A stretch of 64,000 bases of DNA from Candidatus Danuiimicrobium aquiferis (lineage in GTDB: Bacteria; Omnitrophota; Omnitrophia; Omnitrophales; Danuiimicrobiaceae), in contig MHFR01000053.1 of the NCBI GenBank assembly GCA_001804285.1, positions 15,857-79,856 of the forward strand, in the 5' to 3' direction. Shown one piece after another: positions 124 to 64,000 of this stretch (positions within the stretch are counted from its first letter, which is position 1; every line of letters starts with the position of its first letter). A program made the translations under genes and the position numbers. Below the pieces are notes generated by a model. The model was not told where the DNA came from, searched no databases, and saw nothing but the letters and a program-made list of their open reading frames with translations.

Positions 124-1260
124 TCAAGTACCCGGTTCTGCTGCTTGCTGCTGGGTCACGCAGTGAATCGCACCGCCGCCGACGAGCAGCGCGCCCGACG
201 GGACACCCACTACGCGCCGCTTCGGGAAACATTCCCGCAAAATACCGAGCGCTCTCGAATCATTCGAGTCCCCGTAAACAGGAACCAGAACGACTTCGTT
301 TCCGATATAAAAATTGGCATACGACCCCGGGAGTCTTTTTTCACCAGCCATGATTTTTCGAGGCATCGGCAAGCGAATGAAATTGAGCATCCCCATATTT
401 CCGGCGCGGTTTTCTTCGAGAATCCTCCAATTCCGCCGGATCATGTCACAATTCACGTCTGTCCGGTCATCTTCGTCAATCATCACCAGGGTATTTTCAT
501 TCACAAACCTTGCTACATTGTCGATATGCCCGTCCGTATCGTCGCCGAACAACCCGCCGAGTAGCCAAATGAATTGCTCAATCCCCAAATGTTCTTTTAA
601 AATCCGCTCGAGTTCTTCGCGCTCCGTTCCGTAATTCCGGTTCATATTTAAAAGACATTGTTCCGTCGTGATGAGCAACCCTTTTCCGTTCACGTCAATC
701 GAGCCGCCTTCCAGAACAATTCTCGGCCGAAAACGCGGCATATAAAGATCGTCCGAAAGAATCTCGGGAATTTCATTATCGGCAAGCTGGCGATCATATT
801 TAAAACCCCACGCATTAAAAATCCAATCGCAATAAGCGGATTTGCCTTCGCCGTTCAGTAAAAAGGTCGGGCCATAATCCCGAATCCACGGACCAACGGT
901 TTCAATTTGGTGGAAGAAAATATTGCTGACAATATCATGCCTCTTCAATTTTTCCACCACTTCATCTTCTTCAGATTGATCATCCACCAAAAGGTGAACT
1001 TCTTCCGCCTGGTGAAGCTCCTGAATCATCTTGAGATAGATTTCTTCCACTTGAATGAGTAATTCATCCTGCCAGGTTTCGTGGTCATGCGGCCAGGCAA
1101 GCCACGTCGAAATGTGGGATTCCCACTCAGCCGGCATCCGGTAACCGAGCCTTTTAGGAGTTGACGTATTTTCGTATTCAGGTAATGACATAAAATTGAT
1201 GGTTTCTATTTTTTCAACATTCGTGCTTAAATGTCCAATGTCCAAATCCTCAATGACCAA
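124..1260 (-). CDS. aguA: agmatine deiminase (porphyromonas-type peptidylarginine/agmatine deiminase family)
   Basis: 378-aa ORF. It has the N-terminal motif MPAEWESH...WLAWPH typical of AguA, and a C-terminal GGGAIHCVTQQ carrying the catalytic Cys. TTG at 1260 has GGAG five nt upstream. An alternative ATG (MSLPEY) at 1191 gives a more typical N-terminal length. Confidence 0.8.
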   Translation of the reverse strand: MVIEDLDIGHLSTNVEKIETINFMSLPEYENTSTPKRLGYRMPAEWESHISTWLAWPHDHETWQDELLIQVEEIYLKMIQELHQAEEVHLLVDDQSEEDEVVEKLKRHDIVSNIFFHQIETVGPWIRDYGPTFLLNGEGKSAYCDWIFNAWGFKYDRQLADNEIPEILSDDLYMPRFRPRIVLEGGSIDVNGKGLLITTEQCLLNMNRNYGTEREELERILKEHLGIEQFIWLLGGLFGDDTDGHIDNVARFVNENTLVMIDEDDRTDVNCDMIRRNWRILEENRAGNMGMLNFIRLPMPRKIMAGEKRLPGSYANFYIGNEVVLVPVYGDSNDSRALGILRECFPKRRVVGVPSGALLVGGGAIHCVTQQQAAEPGT

Positions 1261-1494: not shown

Positions 1495-2050
1495 TTATGC
1501 GGCAGAACCGGTCAGCTGCTCAGAGCGGATACCTTGAGCGAGAACGTGAATCACAAGATCCAATGCGCTCAGCGCGTCCCGGCTTTCCACCTGAATACGG
1601 TCGTCATGCCGCCTGAGCCATTCAACGGTCTTCTTGGAAAGCGCAACGAGTGCCGCCGTGAAAAGCTGTGCGGCGGTCCCCGTCTCTTTCTCGCCGCGAT
1701 AGCTGAACGGGACTCCGTTCGCATCCTGCCCCGCGTCAAACATGAGGCCCTTGATGCCGGTTACCGCAGTCGCAATGGTAATCGCAGGGTCATTTCCGAA
1801 AAATGTTTCCGAGTTGGGAAGCATTTTATTCGTGAAAATAACCTGCATCTGTTTTCCGGTCACCGAAATAATTCTTCGCACCGGATCATCCTGATTCACC
1901 GGAATGTTATCCATCACCGGCTTCAGCGATGACGGCATTGAAATACGCGGAATAATATGAAGGTTTGAATTTGCCGCCTGGCTCGCGAAGTCATGCAATT
2001 TCCGGACCACCGATTCGGCCCTTGCAGCGGCAACTTTTCCCCCTCGCCGC
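1495..2050 (-). other. conserved C-terminal domain shared by all three giant proteins (gene 1 copy, most divergent)
   Basis: ...FTAALVALSKKTVEWLRR...LAQGIRSEQLTGSAA aligns with ...LLLAGMGLLSKKDIDG...KDALAKAA in gene 2 and ...LLAAAVVLLSKQEIAGL...EEAMKRAA in gene 3. Confidence 0.5.
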
Positions 2051-5000
2051 GACTGCGAGGACAGGTCGCGCGCTTCGGATGACATCATGGCTAAATCTTC
2101 TTCGCTGATTTTGTAATCAACCATTGTCACTTCTTTGATTGACTGAATGGCTTCGGCAAGGTCCGTCGCACGGGCGAGATTTTCTTCGGTAAACGGATCC
2201 GTAGAATCATTCATCCTGTTGATTTCACTCACAACCGCTTGCCGCAATATGGACAACGCTTCTTCGTAAGTCATTCCGGAATTTCTTAAAACTGCCAACG
2301 CTTTTGTAAAACCCGAAATGTCTGTTGCGTCCGGCGTGCGGAGGAAAACCCGGTCGATAATCTCGCTAAATTGAGTTCCGGGTTCCGAGTTTAAAGTTTC
2401 GAGTTTACCGAAAAAGGGGACAGGCAATCGCTCAACTTGAATCATATGCCTGTCCCCTTTTTGTTTGGAACCCGAAACTCGAGACCCGAAACTGTTTTCA
2501 TTGCGCACTTCCGATCTTCCTAAGTCATTATCCGACAACGGCTTAGCGCTCCATCCCAATTTCTGAAGCGCCGCCTCCGATTTTTCATCCTGAACCTTCC
2601 GGTACATCTCAACCAAACGGTCGGCGTTCGCCGGATTAAATTCAAGGAGCATCGCATTCCCTGCAGGACTCACATGAACATCCACCAATTCCCGGAGCCC
2701 GTCGAGCGGTTCATCGAATGTCGGAAGTGACATCACGTCCAGAATCCATTCAAGGCCTTTGACCAGGCTGAGAGGAGAAGGAAAAAGATTCCGGAAATTC
2801 TCGGAAGCTTGTTGAAATTGATCGAGAGGAATGTCATACAGCACAAAATGCGGCTGAAGTGAAAATTCAGGGAAGGCCCCAACCAAAGATTGATTCATGC
2901 TTTCAAGGCTTTGAAGCAATGCCTCCGGTGTCCGCAATTTCTTTCCTAATCCCCGGTAACGTTTCCCCACCAAAAATCCGTCGGGAGGAATCCGGCTGAC
3001 GAGTTTCGGCGCCCGGGCTTCGCGCAAAAGATCTTCCTTCACCAACTCAGCAAGTTTTTGAAGCACCCGGTTTCCGTTCTGATATCCAATGCCATCCTTT
3101 TTGCCGTCCCCGCTCTGAAGCCTATGATATGCGCGGCCGGCCGATTTCTTTTCTAAAATCGCGTGCTCCGCAAAATAATCCCGGACGGACAGCAACATGA
3201 GGTTGTTCATCCTTCCATGGGCTAAATGATGTTTAAACGTATCCATATCCAGCGTCTTCGTTAGGGGATCCGGGTGAGCGCGAAGCATCCCTTCTTCGGC
3301 CTGTTTCGCTAACTTTTTCTGTTCAAGCGCTTCTCTTAACTCAACCACTTTCTGACTGAAAGCCTCGGAGGATAACCGTTTGCCTTCGGGAACGATATTT
3401 CCGATCCATCCTATGGAAGAAAGGACATAATTTTGATTCCGGCCGTTTTGTTTTGCTTTTGAAAGCGCATCGTTCGCGAAGCGCAATCCCCATATATAGA
3501 ATTCATCCAGCCGGTCTTCGCGAAGCTTACCGGCCTCGTCGACCCAATAATTCGAACCGGAAAAGGGGACAGGCATATTACTCAAAAGAGAGCGATTGCC
3601 TGTCTCCTTTTCCATATCCGTCGTCTGCGTGACCAAATAATCAAGCACTTGCTTGGCGGAAACAGCGCCGAGAGAAATGGTGAGGATATTTTCAAACTCA
3701 ACTGCGAGCAACCGCCCGGACGGAAGTTTTAATTCGTTCATGAGTCGCGCAAGTTCGACGCGTTGAAAAAACGTGCTGTCAGGGGAAGATGTCATTCCCA
3801 CGGAAGTGGGAATCCAGCTGGATCCCCGCGTACGCGGGGATGACACTTCTGAGATTGCTTCGACAATATTCTGACCGCCATCTCGCAATGACACGCCGGG
3901 GCCTTGTTTCCTGACCAGCAAATTAAACCCATTTCCATGCCGGACCGCCGCGACGATATATTTCAATCCCATGGTTCGGATCATTTTCTGGAATTCCTGG
4001 ATGTCTTTTTCTTTGTAGCCTTTTAAATCAAGCCGGTAAATCGCATACCGGTTTTCAAATGCCTTTGTGTATAACCCGACCGGTTGAGAAACAAATTCAG
4101 ATCTTCCCATTTTGGGACCGGCAAACTCCAGCACCGCTTCGTCTCCGCCGACATAGCGATGGATCTGCCCTTGCATGACTTGATTCAGGATTTCCCGCGC
4201 TTCACGGTATAACGAGACATTCGCGATGATGACATCCGGCGACGGCTCGTTTCCAAGCGTTCCGAAAAAGCGTTTCCCGAGCGCATCATTCCGGGCACTT
4301 AATAGATCGGAATCGATCATTGAAAAATAAAATTGGTCAAGCGTACCGGCTTTTGCGTGCATTTTGAGTTTCTTAAGATGCTCGACTTCACCCTCCGCCT
4401 GTGATGTAAGCGGATCCGAGGATTCAGTGCGGACTTCAGCTCTGAATTGAGTTCCTAGTTCCGAGTTTAAAGTTTCGAGTTGATCTGTTTGTCCTAACCC
4501 GAAACTCGGAACTCGAAACTCTGAACTATTTTGCAGACGCACCTCTCCCCGTTTCCTTATTGGTTCTGTCACCCCACCATTGCGCATTCCCGGTGGAATA
4601 AACGCATCAACAACGCCGGCTTCCATGCCAATGTTCTGATAAAACCCGTGGTCCGGCTGAAGTGGAACGCGAAGCGTAACGACATTTTTCGGCGTCGCCG
4701 GCGCGAGATATCCTTCGTCCATTTCCCTGAAAAATAAATATTGCCAACCTGCCCCATTTTTCTGAACAAGCTTAAGAAAATTGGTTTCATTGGGATCAAC
4801 TGCTTGCAGTTCGCCTTGGGGATCCACCATGCCAAGCATTCTTAATGCCTCCCCGGCCAAAGCAAATTCAGGATAACGAAAGGATACCGGCGTCAGCATC
4901 CGATGCAAATCCCTCAGCGCTTCCACGGACCCCGCATACGCTTTCACGAAATTCATCACGCTCGGTTCGGCTGCTTCGCGCTTTTTTCCTCTTCCGTCCG

Positions 5001-8000
5001 GCCCTACATCATACTTTTCATCAATCGCTTTTTGAATGGCGCCAACTTCATTAAAGACGACGAGTACTTTTATATTCGCATGCACAAATTCTTCTATCCT
5101 CACCACTGGTTTCGCCAGCAAGCCCTCAATCAGTTTAATGCTTTCGCGCAAACTGGTAGTAAACCCCGAACTTACGCCGACTTTTAATTTACCGGCCCTT
5201 TCCCCCAAAGAAACAAGATTTCCACGGAGCTTGAGCAACTCTCTCTCGGGAGTCACAACCTGCTGCTTGAAATACGCAAAAAGCGCTTTCTCGGAAATCG
5301 CCGGATCGGCGGGCTCAAAGAGTTCGGAATCAACAGGAGCTTCTGCCGCCTTTTCCGTTTCAGAGAGGGAACCAAATCGCCGTTCGTAATTTCGCATCAC
5401 AAGTTCTTCCGCGATTTTCCAGTTGTCACGAAGCTTGAATAAAATGGTCCGCGCACGCGCGCGTTTTGCCCCGTCTTTCTTGAAAAATATGCCGATGAAA
5501 CGCCCCACCTGCGCGAATTCGCTTTCCGAAAGCCCAATGGTTTTGATCTGAAAAAATTCACGCGCTTGATTATACGCTTCACGAATAAAGCGATATTCGT
5601 CCAAACCAAGTACGTTAAACGCCGCATTAAACGAAGCCATCACCAACACTTGCCTCTTATCAGGACGAACCTGTAAACTCTCTTTCCCAATTTCCGCGGA
5701 CCGATAAAACCGGCTATACGATTCATTCAGGTTCTTCCTCAGAGCCGCTTTCCCGCTTTCAGATTTATCCAGGGCTTGATACATCGCAGGAATTTCCTGC
5801 TCTAAGTCTTTCAGAAAACGGTCAAATTGTTCTTCGGAAAAAGACAAGTCCAACGATCTCTGCTGGTTCGGCTGTTTGTATTTGCTGAGCAATTTGAAAA
5901 ATCTATCCTCCATGATAAAGACGCCTTTCGCCAATTCCACTCCGAAAGCCGGGGGAAACAATCCGGAAGGCTGCATGAGCTTCTCTGCGGGCGACCGCGA
6001 AAGAACAACACCGACCCCTCGCTGAATTTCTCCCAACTCGGGAATCTGCATCACTTGAATCAATTCCGGCGCAACAGGATTTTCCGACAAATATTGTTTT
6101 TCGGGCATCAATAAATAGGAATAGCCGGTATGTGCCATCAGCTCCGGACCCGAGAGGGGCTGGGGATACGTTTCAAGATTAACACGCAATCCGGTCTCTC
6201 GAATAGACCGGAAAAAACCGCGCTCCGGAGTGGCAATCAAATTGTCCTGCTTATCTCCGGAAACAATCCCGATCATCAGATGCGGCCCTTTCTCCGGGAC
6301 ATCGACTTTCAATAATACCGGTGCTGTATCAAACACCAACTCTTTCGAGAGTTCGCTGAGCGCGTTGTAAGCACCCACATATCTTTTATTGACCACAAGC
6401 ATTTGCATTCTCGGCATAAAACTTTCCGGTTTATACCGTTTGTTCATCGATTTGCGTGCGCTGGCGCCAAGTTTTCTCAGATTATTTTCCAAACGATTAA
6501 ATTCCGATAAAGCCACATCCCCGGAGCTTTGCGATCGTATACGATCAATCATCTCCGTGCTTTCTTTGTAAGACGCTCTGAGGCCATAACGGTCGTCTAA
6601 TCTTCCGGATTCCGGATAAATTCGCATTTCTTCACAGGCGTTTTTCAATTCTTCTACGGCTTTCGAAACCACTTCCAATTTGTCCTTGCTCACCGTGACG
6701 GACTGCGCAAAAAAGGCATCGATTGCCGTTCTTGCCTCGTCAGCATTTGCCGTGTCAAAAGTACTGCCTGCCGGAATTTTGGTCCGCACGGTGAAAACTC
6801 CGGCCGGAAATGAAAACGTTGGTTTTTCCCGTTTCGCGTCCGCAGCAGACGCCGCTTTAGCCTGTTCGAATGCTTTACGATTTAATACAAAAATATTTTT
6901 CGGCGAAATATCCGGAAGCGGAAGTTCATGCCCCATCACCAAAATTTGCCAACCCGGCGTCGCCTGAAACATTCCATCAAATCCGCTAAACCGGACCTGT
7001 TTCGATGAATCTTCAATATCGGTATAAACAAATGTTTCAAAATTCGCCCGGTAAATTTTCCCGGACGAATCAACAAGACCCATGATAAAGACCGGTTTAT
7101 CGGCTCCCAGGGTGGGGATTTCAAATCCGGGAGCACGGTACTTGATAAAAACGCTGGCGATGTGGTCTTGATACTGCCGGGTCAACGCATTATCTCCCGC
7201 CTGAAACAAATCGATGGCGCGATGATCCATAAACTGTTTGCTTTCAAATAACCACGCTGCTTCGCGGCGTGCTCCGGTCACATATTGATTCATCTGATCA
7301 AGCACTTGAATGATCTTGAAAAACGACGCATGCCCCTTTTGGTCGATCAGCTTCTGTAATGCGGCCGATGCGACCGCGAATTTTTGATCGAGAGAATCTG
7401 TAGCATTCGGATTATTTTTCCGGTGCCAGGCATTCATTTGCCCCATCGCGGTTTTTATAATTTCCAATGCGTTTTTGGGAACAGAAAAAGGCAATCCATA
7501 ATATGAATCAAATACCCTTTTCGCGACAACAGGAGCTGCGGGCGTTAAATAGTCAGAAGATTTTTCCGCTGCTTTATCTTTGTCCAATTCTAATCGCAAA
7601 TTGACACTTTGTTCAGACGCTTCAAGCCCGACGACAAAACCGATGGCTTGCATCATTTGGGCCGGTTCACTGAGCGAAATTTGCGTCACTTGAGAATCCG
7701 ACATGAAATAATCATTCCAAATGAGTGATAGCGAAGACATTCCGAGCGGCGTAGCTTCCCGATCGAACACTTGATGATCGTAAATAGAGGGACTCGCCCA
7801 TAAAATCGTGTGCATTTTCCCGTCATCAATAATTAAAAAGAGCGGCTCGGACTTTCCCTTCCCCTGCTTCGATCGCCAATAGACTAATTTTGCGACGGCA
7901 TTTTCCGGAACCTCGAGGGCGAGCGGACCGGTCAATTGTTTCGCATTCAACTCAACCACTTTATAAAAAACTTTTTGCTGTCCACGCGTTTTTGAAGAGA

Positions 8001-11000
8001 CCGTGTACGTTCTCACCTTTTCGACCTGATCAATTTGGAGCCTTTTGGCCGGTTTCTTCTCTGCCTCTTTCGCTTGAAAGGCTTCAAGAATATCGGCTCC
8101 CCACAAAGGATACCGGGAATCCGCCTCTCTTGATTGCGTGAGCCATATGGCAGAAAAAGCTTGTTGAAGCACCCCTCCGGCATCGTGTCCCGGTTCAAGG
8201 AAAGATTTCGCAACGGAGTCCACCACGTAAGCATACATCCCGGAAAAATTCAATATAGGCGCCGGCGCACCGGTCAAAAGTTCGAGTTTCATTTGGCGCA
8301 AGACTTCGTCGGAAGGCCTCGATAATCCGGCCAAAGCTTCATGCAATTTAGGTAAAATTTCTTCTTTCGTCACAAAAATTTTCTTCGGGGCTTTGGCCAT
8401 CATCTCTTTCACAGAGACATACCTCCCTGCAAGAACGTCTTTATTCAAAGCACCGGCTCCTTCCATATTACGGGCTAAATTAATTTGTTGCGCTATCTCC
8501 TCCGCCGTTTTGTTCTCTAATTGATCGAATAGCTGTCCTTGCTCCGGCGTCAGGCTTTCACGGGGAATCATTAAATTCAATAATGCGGCTGCGTCTTTGG
8601 CCCGGTCCGACAAAAGTACCAGAGGGCCTTTCGAAACACTCGCACCGATGGTTTCAAAAAAGACATTAATGGAATCCCAGAAATCAAATTCAAATGCCGG
8701 CGAAGTGGCAAAATATTCACGGATAATACTTTGATCCGTTTGAAATTTTTCGATCACAATCGATACAAATGCCAGGAGCGCAATGGCATCCGCTTCCCAC
8801 CGTTCGAGCAGCGTCCGTTGATCGGGAGAAATCTGTCCTTCGCGAATTAACTTTTGCAGATTCCGCACCGTTTTTTCCATGGTTAGGAATATTTCAATGT
8901 TTCCTTCAAAGCCTCCGGCCTCATCGTTTCTGTTGAGCACTTCAAAGATCGATATTTCCTGTAAATTGGTCTCGGCGCGCAAAGACGGATCGGCAACAAT
9001 CCGGTCCATGTGAGCCGCATGCATGGCCATCGGCGAACCGGTTTCCTTTAATTCGTCGACGGACTCTGAAATGGCCGTTTCGATCGCACCGATCGCCTGC
9101 GTGGCTTGCGTTTTTAATGTTTCAAAATCATTCGTCTCGCGGCCCGCAACTAATTTTCCGATCATGGCTTTGGATTTTGTATCAAAATTCAGGATATCAT
9201 CTTCTAATGTAGCTATCCGCGCCGGATCTAACGTTAACAAAGGATGAACCCGGGACTGTATGACGCGAAGTTTCGCATCCAAACTTGTTTTCGCTGCGGC
9301 AACACGATCTTGCAATTCGCGAGTCAGTTTGCGATTGAACTTCTGGGAAACCACTTGGGCGCGCTGGCTTTCAAATTCCCGCGCTTTGTCTTCCGACACA
9401 ATCCACTGCTCCGAAATATTTTTGCTCTTGTCGCCGATCGCTTCATTTAATTTCGCGACAAATTGAACCTTGGCGTCCCGGCTTAATAATCCCATAACAC
9501 CCACCGGCAGGTTCTCCATACGGACTCTTCCGCCTTCAATATCAGCTGCCAATTCTTTAATCCACGCAAGATGATCAATCCCTTTGCTGCGTTCTTTTGC
9601 GGCTTGCGCAGCAGTCCGGAAGCGTTCGGGAAACTTCGTAAACGTATTCGCATTTGCCGCCACCAACGTGATTTCAGAAACTTGTCCAAAATACGGAATC
9701 TCGACCGGCTGCTTGAACCGGAGCATGATCCGCTTCAGCCAGTATTGTTCGTTTTCAAGCACGACTTCAATATTTCCGAAATCCGTTTGCCTGCGAAGCG
9801 CCGCGGGGACAGTTTGATTGGTATTCAATCCGGGAATTATTTCCAAGCCCAGATTAAAGGCCTGATTAATTTCATTCCACCACACAAGCTGCTCGGCCGA
9901 CCGGACGGGAATCCGAAGGACCGACCGGGGATTTCCTTGCGAACCGGCTGCGGATCTCAACTGTTCGGGAAGCGTGACCAAAAGTTTGTCAAAAGCTTCG
10001 TCCTTGGACGTGATCGAATCAAGCTCCATTACCCGGATGTTGTCAAAAGAAAACCATTCAAGAAAAATTTTGATGAACCGGTCCGCATCGTGATGGAAAA
10101 AACCCGCCTCTTTGATGAATGATAAAACACCAAAAAGTGTACGACCGATTTCCCCTTCGCTGTGCGAATCAATCCATGAGTCCGTAAACATTTTCCGCAC
10201 CATTTCAATCAATAAATCACGTCCGGCATAGTCACGGGAGATATGTTGATCGAGGAAACGGTTCAGGTCTTCCGTGAAAAGTTTTGCGTTAAATTCCATT
10301 TGCTGGAAAGCGGCGTCCATCCCGCTCTGAGCGGAGCCGGGCAATGCGAGCGCGATGGTCCGTAAACTTCTTGCGATATAAGGAACCAAATCAGGTTGCG
10401 CCTTGGCCAGCGCCATGAGCTCATCGAAAGAGGCCCGGACTTCGCTGCGCTGTTCTTCCCGAATTTTTTCGGCAAGTTGATCGACCTTTTCTAAACCATT
10501 ACGATTCTTCGGCGAAGCCAATAAATTAATCGCGGCCTGGTCCAGCTCATCACCGGCCGAAATTAATATGTGTTTTAATTTTTTCGTAAGCCGGTCCACC
10601 TTTTCTCCGCTTAAAAACCATAAAACGTCGACAGCCGTTCGAATGCCCGAAGCAGGCTCCCCGGACGCGGCGAACCGGCTTAATCTTTCCTGGATTGTTT
10701 TTTCAATTGAATCCCGAAATCCGGAAAAACCTTTTTCACTGTAGATCGATCTCAGAAAAATAAGTTCGGCTGCTATCGGCGAACCATCTTCATTCTGCTC
10801 AATCGCTTTTCGAACGTCCCGAATCACTACGATGCCAACCCCGGCGCTGAGCGGTTCGAGCACTTCGTCAACATACCGGTGGACCGTTTCTTCTTCGGTA
10901 AAAAGATGCGCAAAAACCCTCACTTCTTCAAAAAGTTTCCGGACCTGCTCGAATGAAATGTCCGGCTTAGCCGCAAGATCATGAACATACCGGTACATCT

Positions 11001-14000: not shown

Positions 14001-17000
14001 CAATCAGCGTGACCGGTTGTGCGGGATCGAAAAGGTCGGGATGTAATTCTTTGAGCAATGTATATTTAATAATGGCTTGCCCGATATCCGCAATGTCCGA
14101 ACCCAGCTTTGCGTCATAAATTCCCCGGTTCCATATATAGTCGGGAGCGCGATATTCCGACAAAAGCGGGTCGGACGCCACAAATCCGTCATAATCAAAG
14201 CGGCCCTGGCTCACGTGATGAAAAACAAGCGCAACCAATCGTTCGAACACATCTCCCTTCAGCTGCGCGTAATCCTTGGGTTTCCGCTCCGCCGTGCTTG
14301 CGGTTCGCTTCGCCGGCGTGTCTTTCTCCGTTGTGGTCGACGCAATCGCCATACTCCACTCTTCGGGTTGTTCCGAAAGCTTACCCATTTTGCGAATGAC
14401 GATCGCTCCGACAGAATCCGCATTCTTTTTCACTTCCGAAACAGATAGGTTCTGGGCCACGGCCGGCGAATCTTCGCCGAGCAGCGCGGAACCATTTCGC
14501 GGGACATAGATCTGTAAACCAAAACTATTCGTATCGGCATCGTAAAACGGAACAAGGTAATATTCGAGATGCCTGTATTTTGCTAAACCCGAAAACCGGA
14601 CAGGAGAAATAGATTCTTCCTCACCTCTTTGAATTTTCAACACATAAGCCACATCCTCCAACCCTCGCTGATTGACGGTCACGGCCATTTCCGGCTGCGC
14701 AGAACGGATTCCCGCTAACCATTCTTTATACTCTTGGGGCAAATAGCCTTGAGACATGTCTAATGCATAAGTTTTCTTGACCGGTTTCGGCCGTGCGGCT
14801 GGCTTCGCGCTCTTTTCAATAATACCCTTCCCCCATTCGGCCATCAGCCGCGGAAGTCCCATCCCGAGGTGTTCGGCTATAAATTGAAGCGTCTCCATCG
14901 CCCCTGTAAACATACTACGTAATTCATCGGTGCTCGGTTCGTTTGCTAAGGGTTCGGGTTCAAGCCGGACTTCTTCCAAAACCGCTTCTTCGGGCGCCGA
15001 GACAACCAGCCCCAGCCCTTGCTCCAAAAATTCGCGCGTTGCCGCTTCCGTTTGAACCGGATAAGTGCCGAGGAATTTTCCGCCGGAAATTAAATTTGTT
15101 TTGTCGGGAGTTCTTCGAATAGCTTGTGCAATGGATTGCAATTTTTCATGATCTTTCAGCGTTGTCTCATTCTTTTTTTCGCTGACCGACAGGATATAAA
15201 TATGTTTGCTGCCGGGCGAAACATAATACACAACGCGAAGGAATCCCTTCGTTCCGCTCCCCAATGGAAAATCTCGAAGTGGATTTAAGTCCGCAAACTT
15301 CGGCGTCTCGCTGCTTCGTCCTTCGAGCAATGTCACCAATTTGGCCCGAATGTCAGGCCCGTAGGCTTGTGCCCGCGCCGTTAATTCGCGAAACGCCTGG
15401 TCCGTCAGAACAAGGCTCCGGTCCGTTTCAATCCTCACCCGGAGCGGGGAAATTTCAAGAAGCTTGATGTGTCCCTTCCGCAATTGACCGTTTGCGCGTA
15501 AATGTTCCAATCCCGGAGGTAAGTCGTCAAAATGGCGCGTACGGATTTCGAACCGGTCATTTCTGAAATCGTTTTCCAAAGGCCCGGCTGCCCGTTCGAA
15601 AGCCGCCGTTAAACTGTGCTCCGTCAATTCAGGACTTACCTGGATCACCCGGACATTCCGGTTGTGCCTTAAAAGTAAACGCATGGCCGATGAAATATTT
15701 TCCGGCAAATTTTGCCAGGCACCGGTTCCGACGCTATATTTTGTACTCGTCAAATAAACGGTTTGACTACCCTGATTTTTTTCCCGGATAAAATGAACCA
15801 GCGGTACCGTGGCAGTACGGGCTTCGGACCTGAATTGAGTTCCGAGTTCCGAGTTTAAAGTTCCGAGTTTACCGAAAAAGGGGACAGGCATATGACTCAA
15901 GTTGAGCGATTGCCTGTCCCCTTTTTGTTTGCTGTCATTCCCGCGGAAGCGGGAATCCAGCTGGATCCCCGTTTGCACGGGGATGACACCCTTGTTAGCT
16001 TTAAAGTTGCGAACTTCCGCCCGACCGGCACCCCCCAAACGTTGGGCACGATCAAACACACCCACGTTATGTTTTGCCCATCGCCTGATTTCAGGATCCG
16101 TCGAATTTAAAAACGTTTCCGAGTCCCAAATATTAATCAAAATGTCCTGCGCACGCGAAATCCCGACATTCCGGCGTTTCTTCCCGTCCACCGGGTCCGC
16201 CAGAAATCCGACCGATCCGCCCTTGTTTGAACGGACCCACGATAAAATGACTGCTTTGTATTCCGATCCGATCGACGAATCAACGGTGATCACTTTAAAA
16301 GCGCCGCTTGACACATCCGCCGAAGGAACAAATGAATTCCCAAGGTCAAGATCACGGAGAAATTGCGTAGCCATTTCCTTGGTCGGCTGTGCGATAAAGC
16401 GCCGGACATCCGCATCAAATAATTTCATTTCTTCCTGAATTATTTTTTCCCGCTCGGGATAAGCTTTTTGACGAAAAGTCGGATCTTCACGGCTGAACTC
16501 CTGGAAAAGATTTTCATGCATCCGGAAACGGACAAATTCTGATTGGAATATCAAATTCAACGCAGCGGCAGATTCTGCGGAAATCGCCGGCGGTCCTTGC
16601 GCAGAAATAACAGATGAAAACGCTTCATGAATTTTCGAAAAATGAAGCAACGCATCCGAAATCATGTCAACCTGCCTCTGATAAGGCGAAATGACGGCAA
16701 TGTCCTTCGCCGCGACACCCTGTCGATTGATAAGCCGGTTCACCCAGCTCACAGCTAAGTTAATTTCGCCGCGGTTAAAGCGGCCCATTTCATCCACTTG
16801 CCCGGTCTTCTCTTCCCGGTAAATTCCTCTTGTATCTTCTTCAATGACGGTACCGTCGACATCACGCCCGGCAATTAATTTCCCATGATAAAAATAATTA
16901 ATGAGATCCACGATCAAACGGCCGGACCGGCGTTGAATATCGAAAAAATAAAAGGGCGGCTGCGTCACGCGAAAAACTTCCGCATCCCGGGTGAAAAATA

Positions 17001-20000: not shown

Positions 20001-23000
20001 GGTAAGCCATAATCAAAAATTCAACACTGCGGATATATTGCCCGGAAGAACCTTCTTTGATTTTTTCCGGTTTTTCCGCAATCGGAATCATTAATTTAAC
20101 GAATGTTCCAAATTCCTCCAAATCCCAAGCCAGCCCGGCCACTTGCATTAAATCCTGAGCATCGTTTTCAGAAAGAACAAAATCAAGAGAACGATTTAGA
20201 AATTCCGTTAACGCGCGTCTCCCCTCCTCATCCGACTGGAGCTTTGCATAGAACAACCCAAGCGAAATATAAGGCAGTGAATCTATCAAATCCCGGAAAG
20301 GCACTTTATTTTTTGCAGGCAGCCAATCTGGTTTTTTTTCTACAAGTTCTTTGACCCGGCTAAACCAATGATCCAAATATTGAGCGCTCTCCTTTGTTTT
20401 TCCCGTCATCATCGCACCCATGGAAGCCATCGCCGTCATTTGAAAGAAAGAATCATTTTTCAAAAAAACTTTTCGCGCTGAACTTACATCTTCTGTTTTT
20501 CCGCTCCCTGTTGCTTTTTTAACTAATTCGGCTGCTTTCCTCTGGTATTCCTGATGCAATCCTTCCACCGATTGCCAATCGCCCGCATCAGTAAAAACCT
20601 TGGTTAATTTCATCAATAGTTGCAGACTTTGTGCATCCGCAGAAAATATTTTAATTTTTTTAAGCAATGTTCCCCGTTCAGCTGCAATAAATTCTCTGAG
20701 TCCCTCGACCATCCGAACCTGCAACCAATTGAGCCGTCCGGATATTTCGAGAAAAGAGTCCAAAGCAACCACCCCCATTAAATAGAAAACCGGATGCATA
20801 TGAGTTGCCCCCATCATCTCGCTCATCTTCTGTTCCAGGCTGCTAATTTGTGAAAAAAACACTTTGGCGTCATAATCCGCCCGAATAAATTCTCCGGTGA
20901 GCCACTCCGTAAACTTAATTTGCCGGCGCTCGTGAAGCCTCATCGTTGAGATGGGCCCGGCAATAATTGAATCGTGGTACATGTCGTCATAGCTGACTGT
21001 CCTGGACGCAATTTCTTTGGCTTTCGCCTGAAGCCGCGCATACGTAACTTTGTTTTTTGCGACTCCCATCATTCGGTGAATCCGCCTCAAAGCACTCAAC
21101 CTGTTTTCGTCTTCTTCACCCGCTAAAAGAAATTCCAATTTTTCCCAGTCTTCCTCGCTCATGGTTTTTTGATTCAAGACCTCCCATGTCTGATTCATCA
21201 AATCACTCATTTCAATGTCTGTATACCGGTTAGCAAATTTATACAAGGCGAGGAATACAGATTTTTCTTTCGGCCATTCGTTCAACTTCCCCAAAATGGC
21301 TGACACCAAATCAGAAATCTCATCGCCGTGCCCGGACCGGTTGAGTAACGCAAGTTGATTCAAATGAACCTGCTGATCAATCTCCGGAAGCCGCAGCAAG
21401 ACTTCCAAAAACAATTTAAATATCTGATGCGCCTGTTCGTGACTCCCTGTAAGTTGATATAGACGCGCCAAATCAAACAGGACATACATCAGGAAAATAT
21501 TTTCTTTGGTGTTTCGATATTTTTCTGCAAGTGCGCTTAAAATATTGATCGCTTTCTGATACTCTTTCTGATACAGGGAAAGAGACGCGAAGAAATAAAA
21601 CCGCCAATCCAACGGGTCTGTGTCGCCCAAATCGTCCGTCAGCATTCGGAAAGCCAAAACATCTTCACGAACAATATCCGTTGCCTTGGCAAAAAATGAA
21701 ACCGCGCTTTGGTCCGCCGTATCCTCGTTTAGCAGCTTTGTCGCCAACATCCGCAAAGCCGCAAAATGAATCGTTTTGACGATCGGAAGACTATTTTTTT
21801 CTCCCACTAGCGGAGTCGTGATCTCAATCGTTTTGACCAACTCTTCATCACCGGCCAGCAATAAAAATACTGCCTTCTCAGATAGCAATCTTTCCTGAAT
21901 TAATTTTTTAGATTCCTTATCTTTTCGAAAAAATGATGACCGCTCCACTAAAACCAGGGCTTGATCAAGCCATTTTATTGTTTGGGTGATTTCATCGCTT
22001 TGAAGCGGCAGATTAAATTTTCGCAAGACTTCCGCAAAATCAAGGGTGGCAAAAGCGCGCCGCTCTTCCAGGAAGTCAGGCTCTCCAAGCAACATTTCAA
22101 GTTCCACCCGCATTTTATCGTACCGTTTAAGGTCCCTGAAAATATCCACCAGCAGCAAACGCCGGCCGATCAACAATTGAGGCTGATTCTGAAATACAAT
22201 CAAGGTTTCATACGTCATATGAATGAGCTCTTCATAATTTCCCTGAATCCTTAAAATAGCCTCGGCCATATAGTAATAAAGAGGCAGTTCCCTGCTGATA
22301 ATATTTTCCTGCGAAGAGAGTCTCACTCTAGGGTCATGCATCTTTCCAAGTGCAAGACGGGCCGGTTTTATTCGCTTTTTCAATTCATCGAGAATCAGAT
22401 TGAACTTGGGCTCAACATCGGCGAAATGAATATCGGGCTGATCGAGTCTGAACTGATGAGCCAGTTTAAGCCGCTTTAAGTCTTCTACAAGTTTCTGAAT
22501 CAAAGCGTCACTGGGGATTTTATCTTGTTGATATTTTTGCAAGGCCACCAAAAAAGAACCCGCGTCCACTGGTTCGGATGCGCGGGCTTCGGACCTCAAT
22601 TGAGTTTCGAGTTTACCGAAAAAGGGGACAGGCAATCGCTCAACTTGAGTCATATGCCTGTCCCCTTTTTGTTTGTCATTCCCGCGGAAGCGGGAATCCA
22701 GCTGGATCCCCGTTTGCACGGGGATGACACCCTTGTTAGCTTTAAAATTGCGCATTTCCGATCTTCCCGGAGCTCCGAGATATTTAAAGATAGAAGAAAT
22801 TTGATCTTTGAGATGATTGACTCGCCCGTTTTCCACAGATCCCTCAAGTTCTGTTACCGCAACGATTACTTTTCGAAGACCGCTCTGCAACCGTTGATAA
22901 TAACGCTCACGGATTTCCGTAGAAAAATAAACGCGTTGAATTTCCGCAAGCCGTGAACGGAACGACTCCAATCCCAGGGGAAGAATTTGAACCAGTGGCG

Positions 23001-26000
23001 TTGTTTTCAAATAATCTCTCAACCCGCCAAGCGCTTGGCGGACAAGCTCATCCCGGTATAACGTATAAATGTTGACCCGGTCTTGTTCAATTCTTGACCG
23101 GATTCTCAAAATCTCATCGATCCGGATTTCAATATACCGTTGCGCGGTTTCGATCGACGTTCTTGCGCCTTCCATATGTCCTTCGCTCAGCATCGTTAAC
23201 GATTGCTGTAAACTGTCCCCGGGTAGCGGGAGCACTTTCCCGCCGGCATCTCTATCGTGAACGGGAGTTTCCCGCCCTCCCAATCCTTTTTTGCCATCCA
23301 AAACTTTACGAATGTCTTGCCGGATCATTTCTGTGATAGTCGGTTCAACTCGTCCTCGTTGAAGAAATGCGGCATACCTTTTCATATTTTCAAGTGCTTC
23401 ACCCAAAATCTGGTGTTGTCCGAAAAACATCCCGAAATCTTCATGGTAATCCCGTAAAATATCATTCCGGCTCCGCAACGCTTCTTCCAAATTATCATAA
23501 TGAATGCCGGTTAAAACGCTTTCGCGTGACGTTCCGCCTCCGGCGACCGGTACATTTTTCCAAACATGCTGCCAAATAATAATTTTGCCGTCCGGAAGGA
23601 TTTCGATCCGTTCAACTGTTTTTTCCCTCGGCGAAAAATTTTTGTTCCGCCATTTGTATTCATAAGAAATGTCTTCGTAGGTTTTGATGATCTGATCGAA
23701 AAGATCGATAATTGAAGCCTGCTTCGGAATCGGAACCAATAATTTTTTTCGAAGCAACAATAATTGTGCTTTTAATTTCCGTTTCAGCCATCGGACGTTT
23801 TTCTTGCTCAATCCGTCGATTTCCAAAAGATTACCGATTTCTTCGGGAAGTTTAAATTGAGAGTTGATATTTGCCAAGATCGGATCGAACTCCGCGATTT
23901 TTGCTTGCAAAGCAACCGCATCATCAACCAAATTGCCCAACTCCTTTAGCGGTTCTATTTCTTCCGGAATATCAGGAATGATCTGGCGGATATTGATGTC
24001 TAATTCGGAAATAATTTCCGCCATGTCGGCAGCAAAGGCCCTTTGAAGTAACACCCGGCTCGATGAATCGGGATGATCTGCCCTTGCACTATTCCATTGG
24101 TGTAATAAGGCCAAAACTTTCCGCCGGCGCCTGTAAAATTTAATAATATTACCATCCGTCACTGCTTCCGCCGCCTTTGCTGATTTCACCGCGGCGCGGG
24201 CTTCAGCCCTCGATACATGTCTCTTGGAACGTATCGAGGACACTTGCGCGCTTTGACCAATGTCTGCTTTGGTACTATTTATATTGTTGCGCGCTTCGGA
24301 GCGCGTCCCCTGTGTCATTCCCACGGAAGTGGGAATCCAGCTGGATCCCCGCGTATCCGCCACTAAAGCGTTGGCGGATCCGACCGCATTGTTTGGCGGA
24401 CGCGGGGATGACAATCCTTGGGCTGTTCCATCGCCTCCGGTCGCTCGCAATAACGTGCCAATTCCGCGGACTTCGGATCGTTGTGCACCTTTCACCCGCT
24501 CGTGGAGACGGAGAAGCGTCTCGCGATTGAAAGAAATGACATCTTCAAGCCGTTCGCCAGCTAAAATTTTCTTTTCGATTTCTCCGCGGAAAGAATCTTC
24601 GATTCCGCCGAACTCATCGTCCGGCATGTGTTTGTAAATCACATCATAAATTACCATTTCAAGCTCGACGAGCTGCTTCACATATTGTTTCCGCATCCGG
24701 TTATTTTGAGTCTCATCCCTGCCAAACAAAATCGTCCGTCCATCTAATGCGTTTAACGTGTCGCGAACATTGCGCAATCGTTTTCGCAACCGTTGATAAC
24801 CCGGATCTTCAAACTGCGGCGGGAAACGGTTCCGCAACTGATCGATTTCTTTGACGGTTTCTGAAATCTTCGCGCCGTCAAGTAGCACCTGCACGGGTTT
24901 CCGGACCACATCCCGCACTTCCATCGTTTTCAGGGCGATGTATTTCGAAATCCTGATATTTTCATCCACATAATTTTCAATATGAAAACGGGCCCAGCGA
25001 ATCGCACGAGCGAGCACCTTGTCGTCCGTAAACAAAAACGCGAGCTCCGCCCCGACCATGTCATCAATCACGATCCTTCTCGAAGGTTTTTTGCCGCGAG
25101 ACGCCCATTCCAGCACATTCGCCAAATTGTCACGGATGTGTTTCCGGGCTTTCTGCCTTGCGTCCGTCACGCCCGGAATATCTTTGTCGAGTTGGCCTTT
25201 TTGAAGTTCTTTTAAACGGCCCAGGGCATCGTCCAAGTATCCCAACATATCGTAAGCCGCCATGTTCGCTTCCGCATAACTCCAAAGCGTGTGATCAAAT
25301 GCGCGCAAAAGATCAAAAACATTATGATACTCGGCCCCGATAAGATCAGCGGAAACGGTATCAATATCGGCTCTTCCATATTGATTAAAATTCGCTTCAA
25401 TATTTTCTTGCTCTTTTTCATCATCCGCTTTCGATAAAAGAAATTCCTCAATATCATCAAAAATAACGCCATGAAGTCCGTTCTCTTCGATGACCCCGCT
25501 TGTGAACACTTGAACGACAGCATCTACCGAAACCTCGCTGGCTTTGCCTTTGATTTTTCCGCCTTCCTCACGAATCCGCGAAACCACGAAATCCTTAAAT
25601 CCCGGCAATTCCCAATATGGCTGAATCAATTTCTCGACGGAATTTTTTAAATAAGCCCGCTGCCGCCGGTAACCGATCCGCTCGACCACCAGCACATCCC
25701 CTTTGAATAATTTCCGGATTTTCGCTTTCACATCCCCGCGAATTTCACCCGTCGCCGAATCAAGAAGTTCTGAACGGACCTCCTCCGTGCCGAGCACGCT
25801 GCGGAAGAACTCCTTACTTAAAAGATAATTCCCGATACTCCATCCCTTGATGTCTTCTTGTGTCATATAGCGAATGACTTCCCGCCGGCCGGCTTGCCTG
25901 ACGCGTTTCCACAAGAATTCGCGCTTGAGTGCGTTCATGTGATAACGTAGCTGGCGGAAACGTGAGAATAACACTCCGAGCTTCGGCGAATCCGCCGTCA

Positions 26001-32000: not shown

Positions 32001-35000
32001 AATCCTCGTTCTCTGCCAATTTTTTCAGGATATCCAGTCCAATTTGTGTACGCGCTTCCGCCCTTGGATGAGTTTCGAGTTGAGCTGTTTGTACTAACTC
32101 GGAACTCGGAACTTGAAACTCGGGATTATTTTCCTCGCGCACTTCGCTCCGCCCGCCCGTCACGGCAAACGCCGGCGTCCAATCGTCATGCGCGGTGCGT
32201 TCGAGGTATTGCAAGTCAGGTTCGGGCGAAACCAGATCAGGCGTTTTTCCCTGCTCTTCAAAAGGATTGACATAAGCGGCGTGCAAACGCAGAAAAACAG
32301 TCCAGATTTTGGTCGTAAAATCTTTATCATTAAATTTCATCAATTTTTCGACCACCAAACTCGCTCGCTTCCGACGTTCCCGATAACTTTCATCCGAATT
32401 CCCTTTCACCACAAGAATATTCCATGCCCGGTTAAATTCCTCATGGCCCCCCCCTTCGTCTTCCGCGAGAAGCGCGCCCAACTCACTCAATAACCGGAGC
32501 ACATTGACTCCCTGCAGATAGGCGCCTTTTTGTTCTTCATCTTTTGGCATGTCGGGATACCAAAAAATATTTTCACCTGACTTCCGTTCCGAAAAATTGA
32601 AACGCCGGTACAAATGGTCTTCGAGAAAATCATCGCTGAAACTGAATAAATCAAAAAATTGAAGACCTTTCACTTTTTTCTCTTTTTGTTCCGGATCCAT
32701 CATGCCGGGGTAAAGCATCGCAAGAATCGCCGTCGCCTCCCCCAAATTTTCCCGGGCAAGTTGCAGAGTGATATCTGAATAACGCTGGTTGGCAGTCTTC
32801 TTTCCTTTTGCATTGTCCACTTGATGCTGGAACTCATGCAAAAGAATTGAGGCGAGGTATCGCCGGACAACCTCATTGAGCATAACAGGCCCGGAAACAA
32901 TTTTATGGTCCTGAAACTCCTCCTGAAAATCCCGTTTGAGCGCTTCCTCGAGCAAAGTCATTAATTGGTCTCGTTCATCCTTCTGAAATTCGTCTTTCCA
33001 CCTCGGCGCGTTGGGCTCGACTTTTCTGCGTTCATTCGTTTTAAGCGTGTCCCATAAATCGGTGATTTGGGCGAGCATGTCTTCTTTGCTCATTTTTCCG
33101 TCGAGAGCCGCAGCGATGATATTCAACATCGAAAGAATGCTCTGACAATATTCGTAAACGAACTCCACATTGACATAAGTCAAATCGGACCCATACTCAT
33201 GAAACGCCATGTGTTTCGCCTCCCTCACCGCGACGGCCGGATAAACGAACATGACGTCATATTTCCCGTCGCCCGGATGACGTTTTTCGCCGCTTTTTTG
33301 TTCCCACGACTCGTATGTTTTGTAGCGGAAAAGGTCAAAACTCCAATGTTGATCTTCCGTTTGCCTTGGATAATAGGTGAGCCCGATAAAATGAAGCGCA
33401 TGAATGCGATCAATAGTCTTGAGGTCCTCCCGGCGGGCTGATGGGTTGTTTGCGGCATCCGCCACGTTCCTGACAAAATCCTTGAGGCCGTTAATCACCT
33501 TGATTTTCCGGTCACTCCGCCAGGCGGGAAAATTGCCATAAAGCGAATGGAAGATTTCCGAAGATATACGGACAAGCGTTTCGGAATTTTTCTTTGAAAT
33601 TTGGCCGGCTCTGGCCCTGGCCGCCCAGGCCGCCAACACTGATTGCGCGATAAAAATCCCGTTACTTCCGGCATCTTTCATTTTCTGGATGGCTATCTTT
33701 TCACGCTCGCCCTTTGCCGCGGGTCGGCCTTCGAGATACGAATCGGCCATGAGAAGCGCACCGGCCACCAAGATCACCACTTTCTCAATAAAATCGGAGA
33801 CGTTATCTCCGGCCAACCGGCGCTCTGAAGCAATGGCTTCGGCGCGAGTTTGAATTTCAGATCTGACAGCTTCGAGATCAATCGCATGATTCTTAACTTC
33901 CTTTTCAATTCCTTGTTCGAGAATTTTTAACACCACTGCTGCTGCAACCCGGGATGTCCGGTCGTCCCTGAAACCTGAATATCCGCTCATTGAAACAATT
34001 TTCTCTACACATCCGGAAACTCCGAGCCCCGCAAAAACAGCCGCAATTTTAAAAAATCTCCGGCGAGTGGGAAAAGCATTGCGCGCTTCGGCCCTCGCTT
34101 GATTCCCTTGCGCCTCGCGAGGACTCTCGTTCGTTTTGATTAATAACTGGTTGGAACTACGTTCAAGGTTATGAACTTCGGCACGTTCAGCTAACGCTTG
34201 GTCCGCCAAAGTACTCTTGCGCGCTTTGATTGATAACTGCTGCGGCTTTTCCAAAACAGGAACAGGTTCTGCGTCCATTGAACCAGAACCTGTCCCCGTT
34301 TTTGGTGTAAGGTTACGCGCTTCGGAACGGAACTTTGTTGCTGAAATTTCAAAGACAGTGGAAACCGGTTCATCTTTAAACCGCTGAAATCTATTTTTCT
34401 CGATAGAAAGGTCCCCAAAACTCGAGAAAACCTCGGACAGTTCAGCCCGATCAAAAAACCGCTGCTGTTTGCCTCTTGAATCCACGATAAATCCGCCTTC
34501 GGTCGCCCGCAAAATACCGCCCATCTCGTGGGTTGTATGAACTTTTCCGGTTTGTTCGTTCGCTTCTCTGTATTTCCAATCGTCGGTTGAACGAACAACA
34601 ACAAACACCTTGCCGCCCGGACGCAATATTCTTCTGATTTCTTGTATCCTTTGAGCAAGCGTTGCCTGATCCAAATAATGAAGCGAAAGATGGGCATACA
34701 CAGCGTCGAAAGATTCACTGTCAAAAATAAGCGGTTCATGAAGGTCCTGCAGTTGAGCTCTTAGGTGATCAGAGACTTTGAATTCCCGCGCGCGGCCGGC
34801 AATATGCTCAACTGCTTCTGAAATGAAATCGGTCGCCGTGACATCATAACCGTGCATTGCAAGAAACAATTCATCATGCCCCAACCATGCGCCCAAACTT
34901 AAAATTTTAGATCCTTTCGGTAATAATTGATTTCTCACGATCCTACGCGCGCTTCCATTGACAGTATGCCGCCGGGCTCGACCGATTCCTTCCGCCTCTT

Positions 35001-55607: not shown

Positions 55608-55644
55608 TAATCCCCTTAACTAAGCTTTTAGCATTCTTATGAAA

Positions 55645-55673
55645 AGTATATACCGATTAGGGGTAAAATGCAA
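55645..55673 (-). promoter_or_regulatory. sigma70-like promoter for giant gene 2: TTGCAT-N17-TATACT
   Basis: On the minus strand: cttgcat tttacccctaatcggta tatact. The -10 lies about 40 nt upstream of the start. The architecture is the same as the gene 1 promoter. Confidence 0.45.
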
Positions 55674-55764
55674 GCCCGTGTCCTTCATATTATAATTCGT
55701 AAGTTGTTATATTTAAATGAGATAGGAGAAAGGCTAAGTAATTCAAGTGTAAAATTTAAGCACT

Positions 55765-63996: not shown

Positions 63997-64000
63997 GATA

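Follow-up and report, generated by a model that had tools for sequence, protein, structure and literature searches.

A new C-terminal domain family on three giant proteins of Candidatus Danuiimicrobium aquiferis and its possible role as an end-cap

Three giant proteins are encoded side by side on a 64,000-nucleotide stretch of the genome of Candidatus Danuiimicrobium aquiferis (phylum Omnitrophota; assembly GCA_001804285.1, contig MHFR01000053.1, positions 15,857 to 79,856 of the forward strand), and the locus raises the question whether they carry one common domain at their C-termini and what such a domain could be for. The whole stretch, referred to as the window, contains the three giant open reading frames (ORFs) in tandem, all on the minus strand, and one ordinary gene. 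The initial annotation had described an alignable C-terminal domain of about 180 amino acids (aa) on all three proteins and had proposed it as a candidate sorting, anchoring or secretion-recognition module. The giant ORFs are the following; R[SAG]E[AVM]R is the module-boundary motif discussed below.

1495-40848, minus strand: p1, 13117 aa, with a Sec-type signal peptide, an N-terminal module (N-module) of ~915 aa, 25 R[SAG]E[AVM]R motifs and the C-terminal domain
41304-55607, minus strand: p2, 4767 aa, with the N-module as in p1, 7 boundary motifs and the C-terminal domain
55765-63999, minus strand: p3, at least 2743 aa, open at the window edge (possible ATG at 63996, followed by a transmembrane (TM) helix), with 8 boundary motifs and the C-terminal domain

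Homology of the C-termini and their position

The C-termini of p2 and p3 aligned directly in BLASTP, with 28% identity over 346 aa up to the last residue (E 3e-21; E 2e-25 when the last 400 aa only were compared). Pairwise BLASTP of p1 against p2 gave no in-register alignment (best E 1.1) and a profile of p2 and p3 scored 0.5 bits on p1; between p1 and p3 a 23-residue match (LFTAALVALSKKTVEWLRRHDDR / LLAAAVVLLSKQEIAGLRKLDDQ) lies equally far from both C-termini (E 0.004 with a search space of 400 x 400). A HMMER search with the p2 + p3 profile in 1.84 billion representative proteins yielded five proteins only, each matched at its very end: P0001 (a 113-aa fragment), P0002 (3256 aa), P0003 (6928 aa), P0004 (672 aa) and P0005 (915 aa). 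A leave-one-out profile, made from p2, p3 and these five outside homologues with p1 excluded, matched residues 12879-13105 of the 13117 residues of p1 with E 1.6e-14 and 39.8 bits, in register at the C-terminus. With this profile 49.3 bits were obtained for the final 240 aa of p1, whereas 2000 shuffles reached a maximum of 8.5 bits. The proteins P0003 and P0004 visibly bridge to p1 (GxPxSYxGE...FxAAxxxLSxKxVExLxRHD). Because the leave-one-out profile finds p1 far above the shuffles, the termini of p1, p2 and p3 are shown, on the strength of the profile comparison, to be copies of one ancient domain family, in which pairwise identities are 15-30%. A chance compositional resemblance of p1, with only p2 and p3 related, would agree with the missing p1 link in pairwise BLASTP and with the two-sequence profile, but the leave-one-out result and the closeness of p1 to P0003 and P0004 leave it a negligible chance, and we rejected it.

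The alignable domain of the initial annotation was thus recovered on all three proteins, by BLASTP for p2 and p3 and by the leave-one-out profile for p1, and the Ala-Ala-stop ending noted there is present on each, with varying Ala codons. The length required correction, since the hidden Markov model (HMM) envelopes span ~220-245 aa. The motifs N(S/P)NI(R/Q)FEF and VVIT are found in p2 and p3 but not in p1, which has NSNLHIIPRIS and AITI at these places. The proteins had also been called otherwise divergent; this does not hold throughout, as p1 and p2 have ~900 N-terminal aa in common at 39% identity, and a further ~650 aa internally (BLASTP). The domains have the following positions.

1498-2229, minus strand: p1 C-terminal domain, aa 12874-13117 (full-family HMM envelope), a divergent subtype nearest P0003 and P0004; ends ...LTGSAA, stop codon 1495-1497
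41307-42026, minus strand: p2 C-terminal domain, aa 4528-4767 (HMM envelope); ends ...ALAKAA
55768-56421, minus strand: p3 C-terminal domain, aa 2527-2744 (HMM envelope); ends ...AMKRAA

Upstream of the domain, a helical lead-in is homologous between p2 and p3 only and reaches ~42284 (p2) and ~56760 (p3). The assembly of the p1 terminus was compared with contig MHFP01000071.1 (GCA_001804245.1, Omnitrophica bacterium RIFCSPLOWO2_02_FULL_44_11), which equals the window over the 12 kb compared, except for two runs of N where the window has bases (2049-2055 and 9985-10040; L033 9925-9962 and 1981-1995). The gap at 2049-2055 falls within the p1 C-terminal domain; an independent ENA scaffold reads through it with the same bases as the window, and the halves of the domain on either side share one frame. 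Among the gene calls of MHFP01000071.1 in the stretch examined, p1 is represented by its last 171 aa only (OGX02390.1, hypothetical protein).

In each of the eight instances, 0-3 residues separate the end of the domain from the stop codon, and no internal copy was found in any giant protein among them, in agreement with the C-terminal position described initially. P0004 and P0005 are fragments beginning at the edge of 2-3 kb contigs, and hence no free-standing version of the domain is known. Pfam gave no match for the last 499 aa of the three proteins, nor for any of seven members searched individually; NCBIfam gave none over the same 499 aa, and PADLOC and PDB sequence searches returned no match to the domain. 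The family is therefore as unrecognised as the initial annotation had it. An ordinary enzymatic domain lacking enrichment at C-termini, which had been named there as the outcome that would speak against the idea, was not what the profile searches returned, since the domain is absent from the curated libraries and strictly C-terminal. Overall, the domain constitutes a new family, outside every curated library tested and restricted to one lineage; so far it occurs only with giant multi-module proteins of Omnitrophota, always as the last module.

Giant genes of this kind are reproducible, as nine contigs carry P0021 (6941 aa, in the 90%-identity cluster of P0003) intact; they come from several metagenome assemblies, of which at least one is from groundwater. 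JGI contig L032 has 99.2% identity to window positions 54643-55841. On scaffold L038 (same sample), positions 920-1579 correspond to window positions 55456-56118 and contain the variant P0001, with 92% nucleotide identity across the end of p3 and the start of p2. The last 51 codons of P0001 are identical to p3 at the DNA level and divergence starts abruptly upstream, a mosaic-like pattern that suggests strain-level recombination at the C-terminal domain and makes this comparison uninformative on selection. Scans of metagenome contigs gave nothing with one alignment (A1) and one near-identical 1.4-kb contig with another (A4). In word-indexed homologue searches the p2 terminus found none, the seven-sequence alignment only a p1-identical fragment, and the N-module only short fragments.

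Predicted fold and the Ala-Ala end

The last 219 aa of p2 were modelled with AlphaFold from the seven-sequence alignment (pLDDT 82.7, pTM 0.84); a two-sequence alignment gave a poor model (pLDDT 53). The model shows the domain, as predicted, to be a Rossmann-like three-layer alpha/beta/alpha sandwich of ~220 aa, with the order helix 13-27, strand 33-38, helix 52-71, strand 75-80, helix 86-101, strands 110-112, 123-126 and 137-140, helix 160-172, a hairpin at 179-189 and a terminal helix of 27 residues. Helix 160-172 is the hydrophobic LLxAxxLLSK segment, buried in the predicted structure, and the chain ends with Ala-Ala right behind the long last helix, with no further tail. Foldseek gave no match at E <= 1e-3, and TM-scores were 0.40 or lower.

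Conservation is found in core hydrophobics and alanines, in the Ala-Ala at the end, in the Thr of VVIT and the Ser of LLSK, and in one Asn (LN.NI) and one Gly; six alignment columns are invariant, all of them Ala, Leu or Asn. A Gly-rich loop after beta-1 and a conserved acid, His or Cys were all absent from the family alignment. Given this limitation of conservation to the core and the Ala-Ala end, without such a loop or such residues, the domain is probably non-catalytic and not an enzyme.

Seven of the eight members end in Ala-Ala, with codons that vary, from which it follows that Ala-Ala is conserved as peptide; the stop codon is TAA in 10 of 11 cases. Ala-Ala is preceded by K, R, S, T, I or A, usually a basic or polar residue. 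The background frequency of Ala-Ala ends is ~2% (7 of 319 ORFs in the fetched loci; two of these seven belong to the domain family). Four more Omnitrophota proteins have the same end, namely three giant N-module proteins and one ORF fragment, the latter upstream of an N-module gene:

L023, 9632-16465: complete N-module protein, ends AAAA
L024, 4966-10551: complete N-module protein, ends TAA (residues)
L031, 1648-6393: complete N-module protein, ends IAA
L028, 2-2086: upstream ORF fragment, ends RAA

The C-terminal regions of these four have a similar beta/alpha rhythm and an Ala-rich helix. Their ends were not significantly matched to the domain by hmmsearch or hhalign (best E 0.015, probability 3%), and they are possible distant relatives that were not counted as members.

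Module boundaries and architecture of the giant proteins

The proteins are divided by a short recurrent motif, R[SAG]E[AVM]R, present 25 times in p1, 7 times in p2 and 8 times in p3, where 0.2, 0.05 and 0.04 are expected from shuffles; the total over the three ORFs (RSEAR, RAEAR, RSEVR and so on) is 40 against ~0.3 expected. It is also found 7 times in P0002 and 18 times in P0003, is enriched in closer GTDB relatives and is absent from distant ones. The Arg, Ser and Ala codons of the motif vary freely, which indicates that it is selected as peptide; an explanation of the motif as a DNA repeat or palindrome was rejected on the same ground. A text search for RSEAR, RAEAR and RSEVR gave nothing relevant, and no published description was found.

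Segments between motifs are mostly 200-900 aa long, and no motif interrupts a Pfam domain. In every case it is the first motif that closes the N-module, at aa 715-933. From the last motif to the C-terminal end there are 298-460 aa in p1, p3, P0002, P0003 and P0004 (for P0004, counted from the motif upstream of the domain). In p2, whose terminal segment also contains an S-adenosylmethionine (SAM)-dependent methyltransferase domain (aa 4052-4234), the distance is 769 aa. The last motifs of the three proteins are:

2503-2517, minus strand: RSEVR of p1, aa 12778-12782, 339 aa before the C-terminal end, delimiting the terminal module
43602-43616, minus strand: RSEAR of p2, aa 3998-4002
56893-56907, minus strand: RAEAR of p3, aa 2365-2369, 379 aa before the C-terminal end

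Classical Sec-type signal peptides open p1, p2 and P0002 (...VYA/QT, ...VFA/QS and ...SYA/ET, respectively). The N-module behind them is conserved between p1 and p2 and is also present in P0002 and P0003 (QDAHANYD...LLEGGEG), so that these four proteins have the N-module and the C-terminal domain in common and differ in cargo.

38104-40848, minus strand: N-module of p1, aa 1-915 (QDAHANYD...LLEGGEG...GGFHSEG)
52809-55607, minus strand: N-module of p2, aa 1-933 (same motifs)

A scan of GTDB species genomes with the N-module gave 26 loci, and all those with a named phylum belong to Omnitrophota except one Auribacterota metagenome-assembled genome. No C-terminal domain was detectable within the 10-kb flanks of the 26 loci, as the giant ORFs run beyond the loci. 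Sub-threshold Pfam matches of the N-module, in three different members, were to TraB_PrgY_gumN (E 0.016), Erythro_esteras (E 0.0097) and ChaN (E 0.12); the module is also present in L001, L003 and L027. We take all three families to belong to the Tiki superfamily, which among the three Pfam entries is named in the description of ChaN only. These matches hint at a Tiki/TraB-like fold of the N-module, possibly that of a protease or esterase.

Identifiable domains of p1 are three only: a SAM methyltransferase, a shikimate-dehydrogenase-like module and a superfamily 1 (SF1) helicase (AAA_11/AAA_12). Its last 3117 residues (window 1498-10848, aa 10001-13117) had no Pfam match at E <= 1e-3.

Segments resembling signal peptides lie 0 to ~30 residues after internal motifs, for example RAEARNAFPTRRRFFKIAAVFAGLGVSGC and RSEAR...GIGFAMLSAVAAILPLAAGC:

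34009-34095 (p1): internal signal-peptide-like segment
27844-27990 (p1): internal signal-peptide-like segment
45675-45806 (p2): internal signal-peptide-like segment
60160-60246 (p3): internal signal-peptide-like segment

Two of the internal segments are twin-arginine-like (TRRRFFK, TTRRTFL), and lipobox-like cysteines end the p1 segment at 34009-34095 (LGVSGC) and the p2 segment (LAAGC). Such segments could serve as N-terminal signals only after cleavage of a polyprotein. The motifs are moreover often paired around 25-60 aa of translated palindromic repeat DNA, and in-frame repeat 'junk' would be tolerable if it were excised between paired motifs. The spacing of the motifs, the internal signal segments and the bracketed repeats fit a processed polyprotein, and R[SAG]E[AVM]R is a candidate inter-module processing site.

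Several repeat elements were observed in the giant ORFs. Short hairpins of the form AAGGGGACAGG(N13-15)CCTGTCCCCTT gave 26 arm matches against ~1 expected, most of them in frame inside the giant ORFs as KGTG...PVPF. A near-perfect palindrome of 74 nucleotides at 56414-56487 (RNA fold with 30 bp in two stems, -59.5 kcal/mol, z = -12) reads in frame as PVPFPEVPGSDFQKPEPGTSGNGTG exactly at the N-boundary of the p3 C-terminal domain and is absent from p2. Dispersed repeat families of 40-150 nucleotides, with 87-100% identity, occupy linkers beside or between paired R[SA]E[AV]R motifs inside the giant ORFs, for example NFKANKGVIPVQTGIQLDSRFRGND... and LETLNSELGTQF; they look like elements of the miniature inverted-repeat transposable element (MITE) or repetitive extragenic palindromic (REP) type that are tolerated in frame.

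Hairpin elements: 1427-1470 (intergenic, just downstream of the p1 stop), 2414-2459, 3563-3609, 15878-15923, 22622-22667, 39863-39906, 40013-40059, 40559-40605, 56831-56877, 60992-61026, 62216-62259
Dispersed repeats: 2369-2467, 15833-15931, 22603-22675; 3790-3846, 15933-15989, 22674-22730, 24313-24355, 57525-57562; 4442-4513, 48835-48906; 59-109 / 1423-1473

Possible roles of the C-terminal domain

The obligatory terminal position, the lack of a tail past the last helix and the conserved Ala-Ala-COOH suggest that the domain works through its free end. Our best reading, held tentatively and at somewhat less than even chances, is that it is a non-catalytic end-cap or docking module that is read through this end, certifies a completed giant polypeptide and licenses processing at R[SA]E[AV]R. 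The domain would mark the fully translated chain, and a putative partner that recognises C-termini would bind the end. The most plausible partners would be an AAA+ unfoldase or a tail-specific protease of the PDZ type; the N-module of the protein itself would be an alternative. Recognition would then license downstream handling, which we take to be the processing of a bead-on-a-string precursor at R[SA]E[AV]R.

A number of points weigh against this proposal. One member ends in Ser-Ala, and the Ala-rich terminal helix makes an Ala-Ala end less improbable than the background of 2% implies. In P0004 and P0005 a motif also sits inside the C-terminal domain, and cleavage at R[SA]E[AV]R is itself something that we infer. 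With ~8 sequences in the family the conservation analysis is weak, and a Rossmann-like fold is typical of ligand-binding domains.

A bolder form of the end-cap proposal, which we consider unlikely to hold in full, is that the giants of this clade are true polyproteins and that the Ala-Ala-COOH end is the licence by which a processing or export machine recognises that the precursor of 5-13 thousand aa has been translated completely. The layout would consist of a Sec-type signal, a Tiki/TraB-like N-module, cargo modules and the Rossmann-like C-terminal module, cut at R[SA]E[AV]R, and some of the cargo modules would have Tat (twin-arginine translocation)- or lipoprotein-type signals of their own.

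The sorting or secretion role put forward initially deserves weighing against the end-cap. MARTX toxins are giant modular proteins whose variable effector or enzyme modules stand between conserved N- and C-terminal regions and are released at defined inter-module sites; among their paralogues and variants the ends are common and the cargo differs. By analogy with the conserved C-terminal region of MARTX and with the C-terminal domain (CTD) of the type IX secretion system (T9SS), a dedicated export or outer-membrane machine might bind the folded module and move or anchor the giant protein, the module being a new secretion- or sorting-recognition domain. The strict C-terminal position, the occurrence on several paralogous giants in one genome and in other Omnitrophota, and the variable cargo flanked by a conserved N-module and C-terminal module are in favour, as is published work that locates genes for type II secretion and pili close to some giant genes of Omnitrophota (bioRxiv 10.1101/2023.11.21.568195; 10.64898/2026.06.07.730766). 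On balance we regard it as rather improbable, however, because the predicted 220-aa Rossmann-like fold is unlike any known C-terminal signal, and each signal class for which we looked failed. Sequences of the type GGxGxD occur 0-2 times per whole protein and never in tandem, so there are no RTX repeats; LPxT[GAN] is absent from the last 60 aa of every member; and the PEP tripeptide is absent from the last 250 aa of six of seven sequences, p3 having one ~225 aa from the end. Over the last 250 aa, six of the seven members reach a maximal 19-residue hydropathy of 0.9-1.3, and the p3 segment that reaches 1.76 is the buried model helix 160-172; a motif with a TM helix and a basic tail is thus not found at the C-terminus, which ends ...(K/R)AA. 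The T9SS CTD (TIGR04183/Pfam, a beta-sandwich of 80-100 aa) had no match over the last 499 aa, and the predicted fold of the domain is alpha/beta; the model, a sandwich with six helices and no Pfam match, does not resemble an autotransporter barrel of 12 strands (250-300 aa), nor a short (50-60 aa) unstructured signal of the type I secretion system (T1SS), the terminus being a confidently predicted fold of 220 aa. Sorting signals of these classes (T9SS CTD, T1SS, PEP-CTERM/LPXTG/GlyGly-CTERM, autotransporter barrel) likewise sit at the extreme C-terminus of several large proteins per genome with dissimilar cargo, but the predicted alpha/beta sandwich with its terminal helix has no TM helix, basic tail, signature motif or NCBIfam/Pfam match. 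Sec-type signals are, moreover, already present at the N-termini. A co-occurring transporter or sortase-like gene, which the initial annotation had suggested looking for, was not found: the three contexts inspected (window/L033, L003, L034) contain no exporter (ATP-binding cassette/membrane fusion protein, ABC/MFP), transporter or sortase within ~10 kb, and the genes flanking the three independent members are housekeeping or regulatory, with nothing conserved between contexts. What stands of the original proposal is a homologous, unrecognised module found at C-termini only; its assignment to a known sorting, anchoring or secretion signal is not supported.

The likeness to MARTX extends, as an analogy, to p1, p2, P0002 and P0003, in which conserved ends flank variable cargo. 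There are differences: the proteins studied here have no glycine-rich or RTX repeats, and the Pfam matches over the whole of p1, p2 and p3 include no protease family, Peptidase_C80/CPD among them. They have an N-terminal Sec-type signal in place of sole T1SS export, and T1SS genes are absent nearby. Their terminal module is predicted to be Rossmann-like, and their module boundaries are formed by R[SA]E[AV]R. This domain family adds a new instance to a known theme, that of modular giant proteins whose terminal modules are conserved.

That the domain is a Rossmann-like enzyme or ligand-binding module (for a nucleotide, nucleotide-sugar or ADP-ribose, for example) and comes last by happenstance seems doubtful to us. 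The predicted three-layer alpha/beta sandwich would suit it, as would the nature of the giants as enzyme mosaics (methyltransferase, SF1 helicase, shikimate-dehydrogenase-like module). The Foldseek result, the missing Gly-rich loop and conserved acidic, His or Cys residues, the composition of the six invariant columns and the absence of a Pfam family in any of seven members argue against it, and other enzyme modules change place whereas the C-terminal domain is never internal. Generic Rossmann-like domains, such as the C-terminal GT-B domain of WaaA (4bfc), macrodomains (5lw0/5lw6), cis-prenyltransferases and the N-domain of malate dehydrogenase, have 5-16% identity to it. The three-layer alpha/beta/alpha fold is shared with nucleotide-binding Rossmann-like domains, but here it has no nucleotide-binding signature and has an extra beta-hairpin and the terminal helix of 27 residues.

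ClpX and Tsp recognise non-polar Ala-Ala carboxy-termini. The end could thus be a built-in turnover signal that mimics the ssrA tag and directs the completed protein, or its last fragment, to ClpXP or a Tsp/Prc-type protease, the folded domain merely presenting it; this we hold to be very unlikely. Conservation of Ala-Ala-stop at the peptide level and its extension to more distant Omnitrophota proteins are consistent with it, but the residue before Ala-Ala is not the Leu of LAA, and 220 conserved residues are unnecessary for a degron alone. In further contrast to ssrA/Tsp-type recognition, the end here is encoded in the gene and placed on a folded helix, not added by transfer-messenger RNA (tmRNA).

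Several classes of giant proteins of Omnitrophota have been described, namely Archaeovorin, Dockerin-type, multi-enzyme and repeat giants, and these reports suspect proteolytic processing and state the cleavage points to be unknown (West-Roberts et al. 2023; Nielsen & Lui 2026; bioRxiv 10.1101/2023.11.21.568195; 10.64898/2026.06.07.730766). The Archaeovorin, Dockerin and multi-enzyme giants resemble the present proteins in phylum and as giant mosaics of enzymes, with signal peptides or TM segments and with methyltransferase, HATPase and HD domains; what defines the classes is their content of SecA-DEAD, C39 peptidase or dockerin, and the proteins here were found to have none of these. With their methyltransferase, HATPase, HD and helicase domains, p1-p3 fit the multi-enzyme/regulatory class. 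Neither a conserved C-terminal domain nor an R[SA]E[AV]R delimiter turned up in term searches of West-Roberts et al. 2023 and Nielsen & Lui 2026 or in the sections read.

Whether Omnitrophota giants act whole or cut, and where, is a recognised open problem (West-Roberts et al.). The uncatalogued terminal domain, the conserved N-module and the sharply defined inter-module motif are three handles that together give a parsing rule for these proteins. Processing would predict neo-termini at R[SA]E[AV]R and a free C-terminal module of ~35 kDa. The polyprotein, if true, would supply the missing cleavage points of bacterial giants and define a new terminal recognition domain; should the C-terminal module prove to be no more than a structural cap, there would still be a new domain family and an improved annotation.

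The neighbouring genes include an ABC system of the importer type, upstream in L034, and, in L003, Mla genes. The ordinary gene of the window is located as follows.

124-1260, minus strand: PAD_porph/agmatine-deiminase-like gene, directly downstream of p1 (Pfam PAD_porph, E 8e-107)

Its product scores under the NCBIfam cut-offs for agmatine deiminase (288 against 483 bits and 267 against 382 bits) and is probably, from these matches, a divergent agmatine deiminase. The PAD_porph family also contains enzymes acting on C-terminal arginines, which is mildly suggestive beside Arg-flanked module boundaries.

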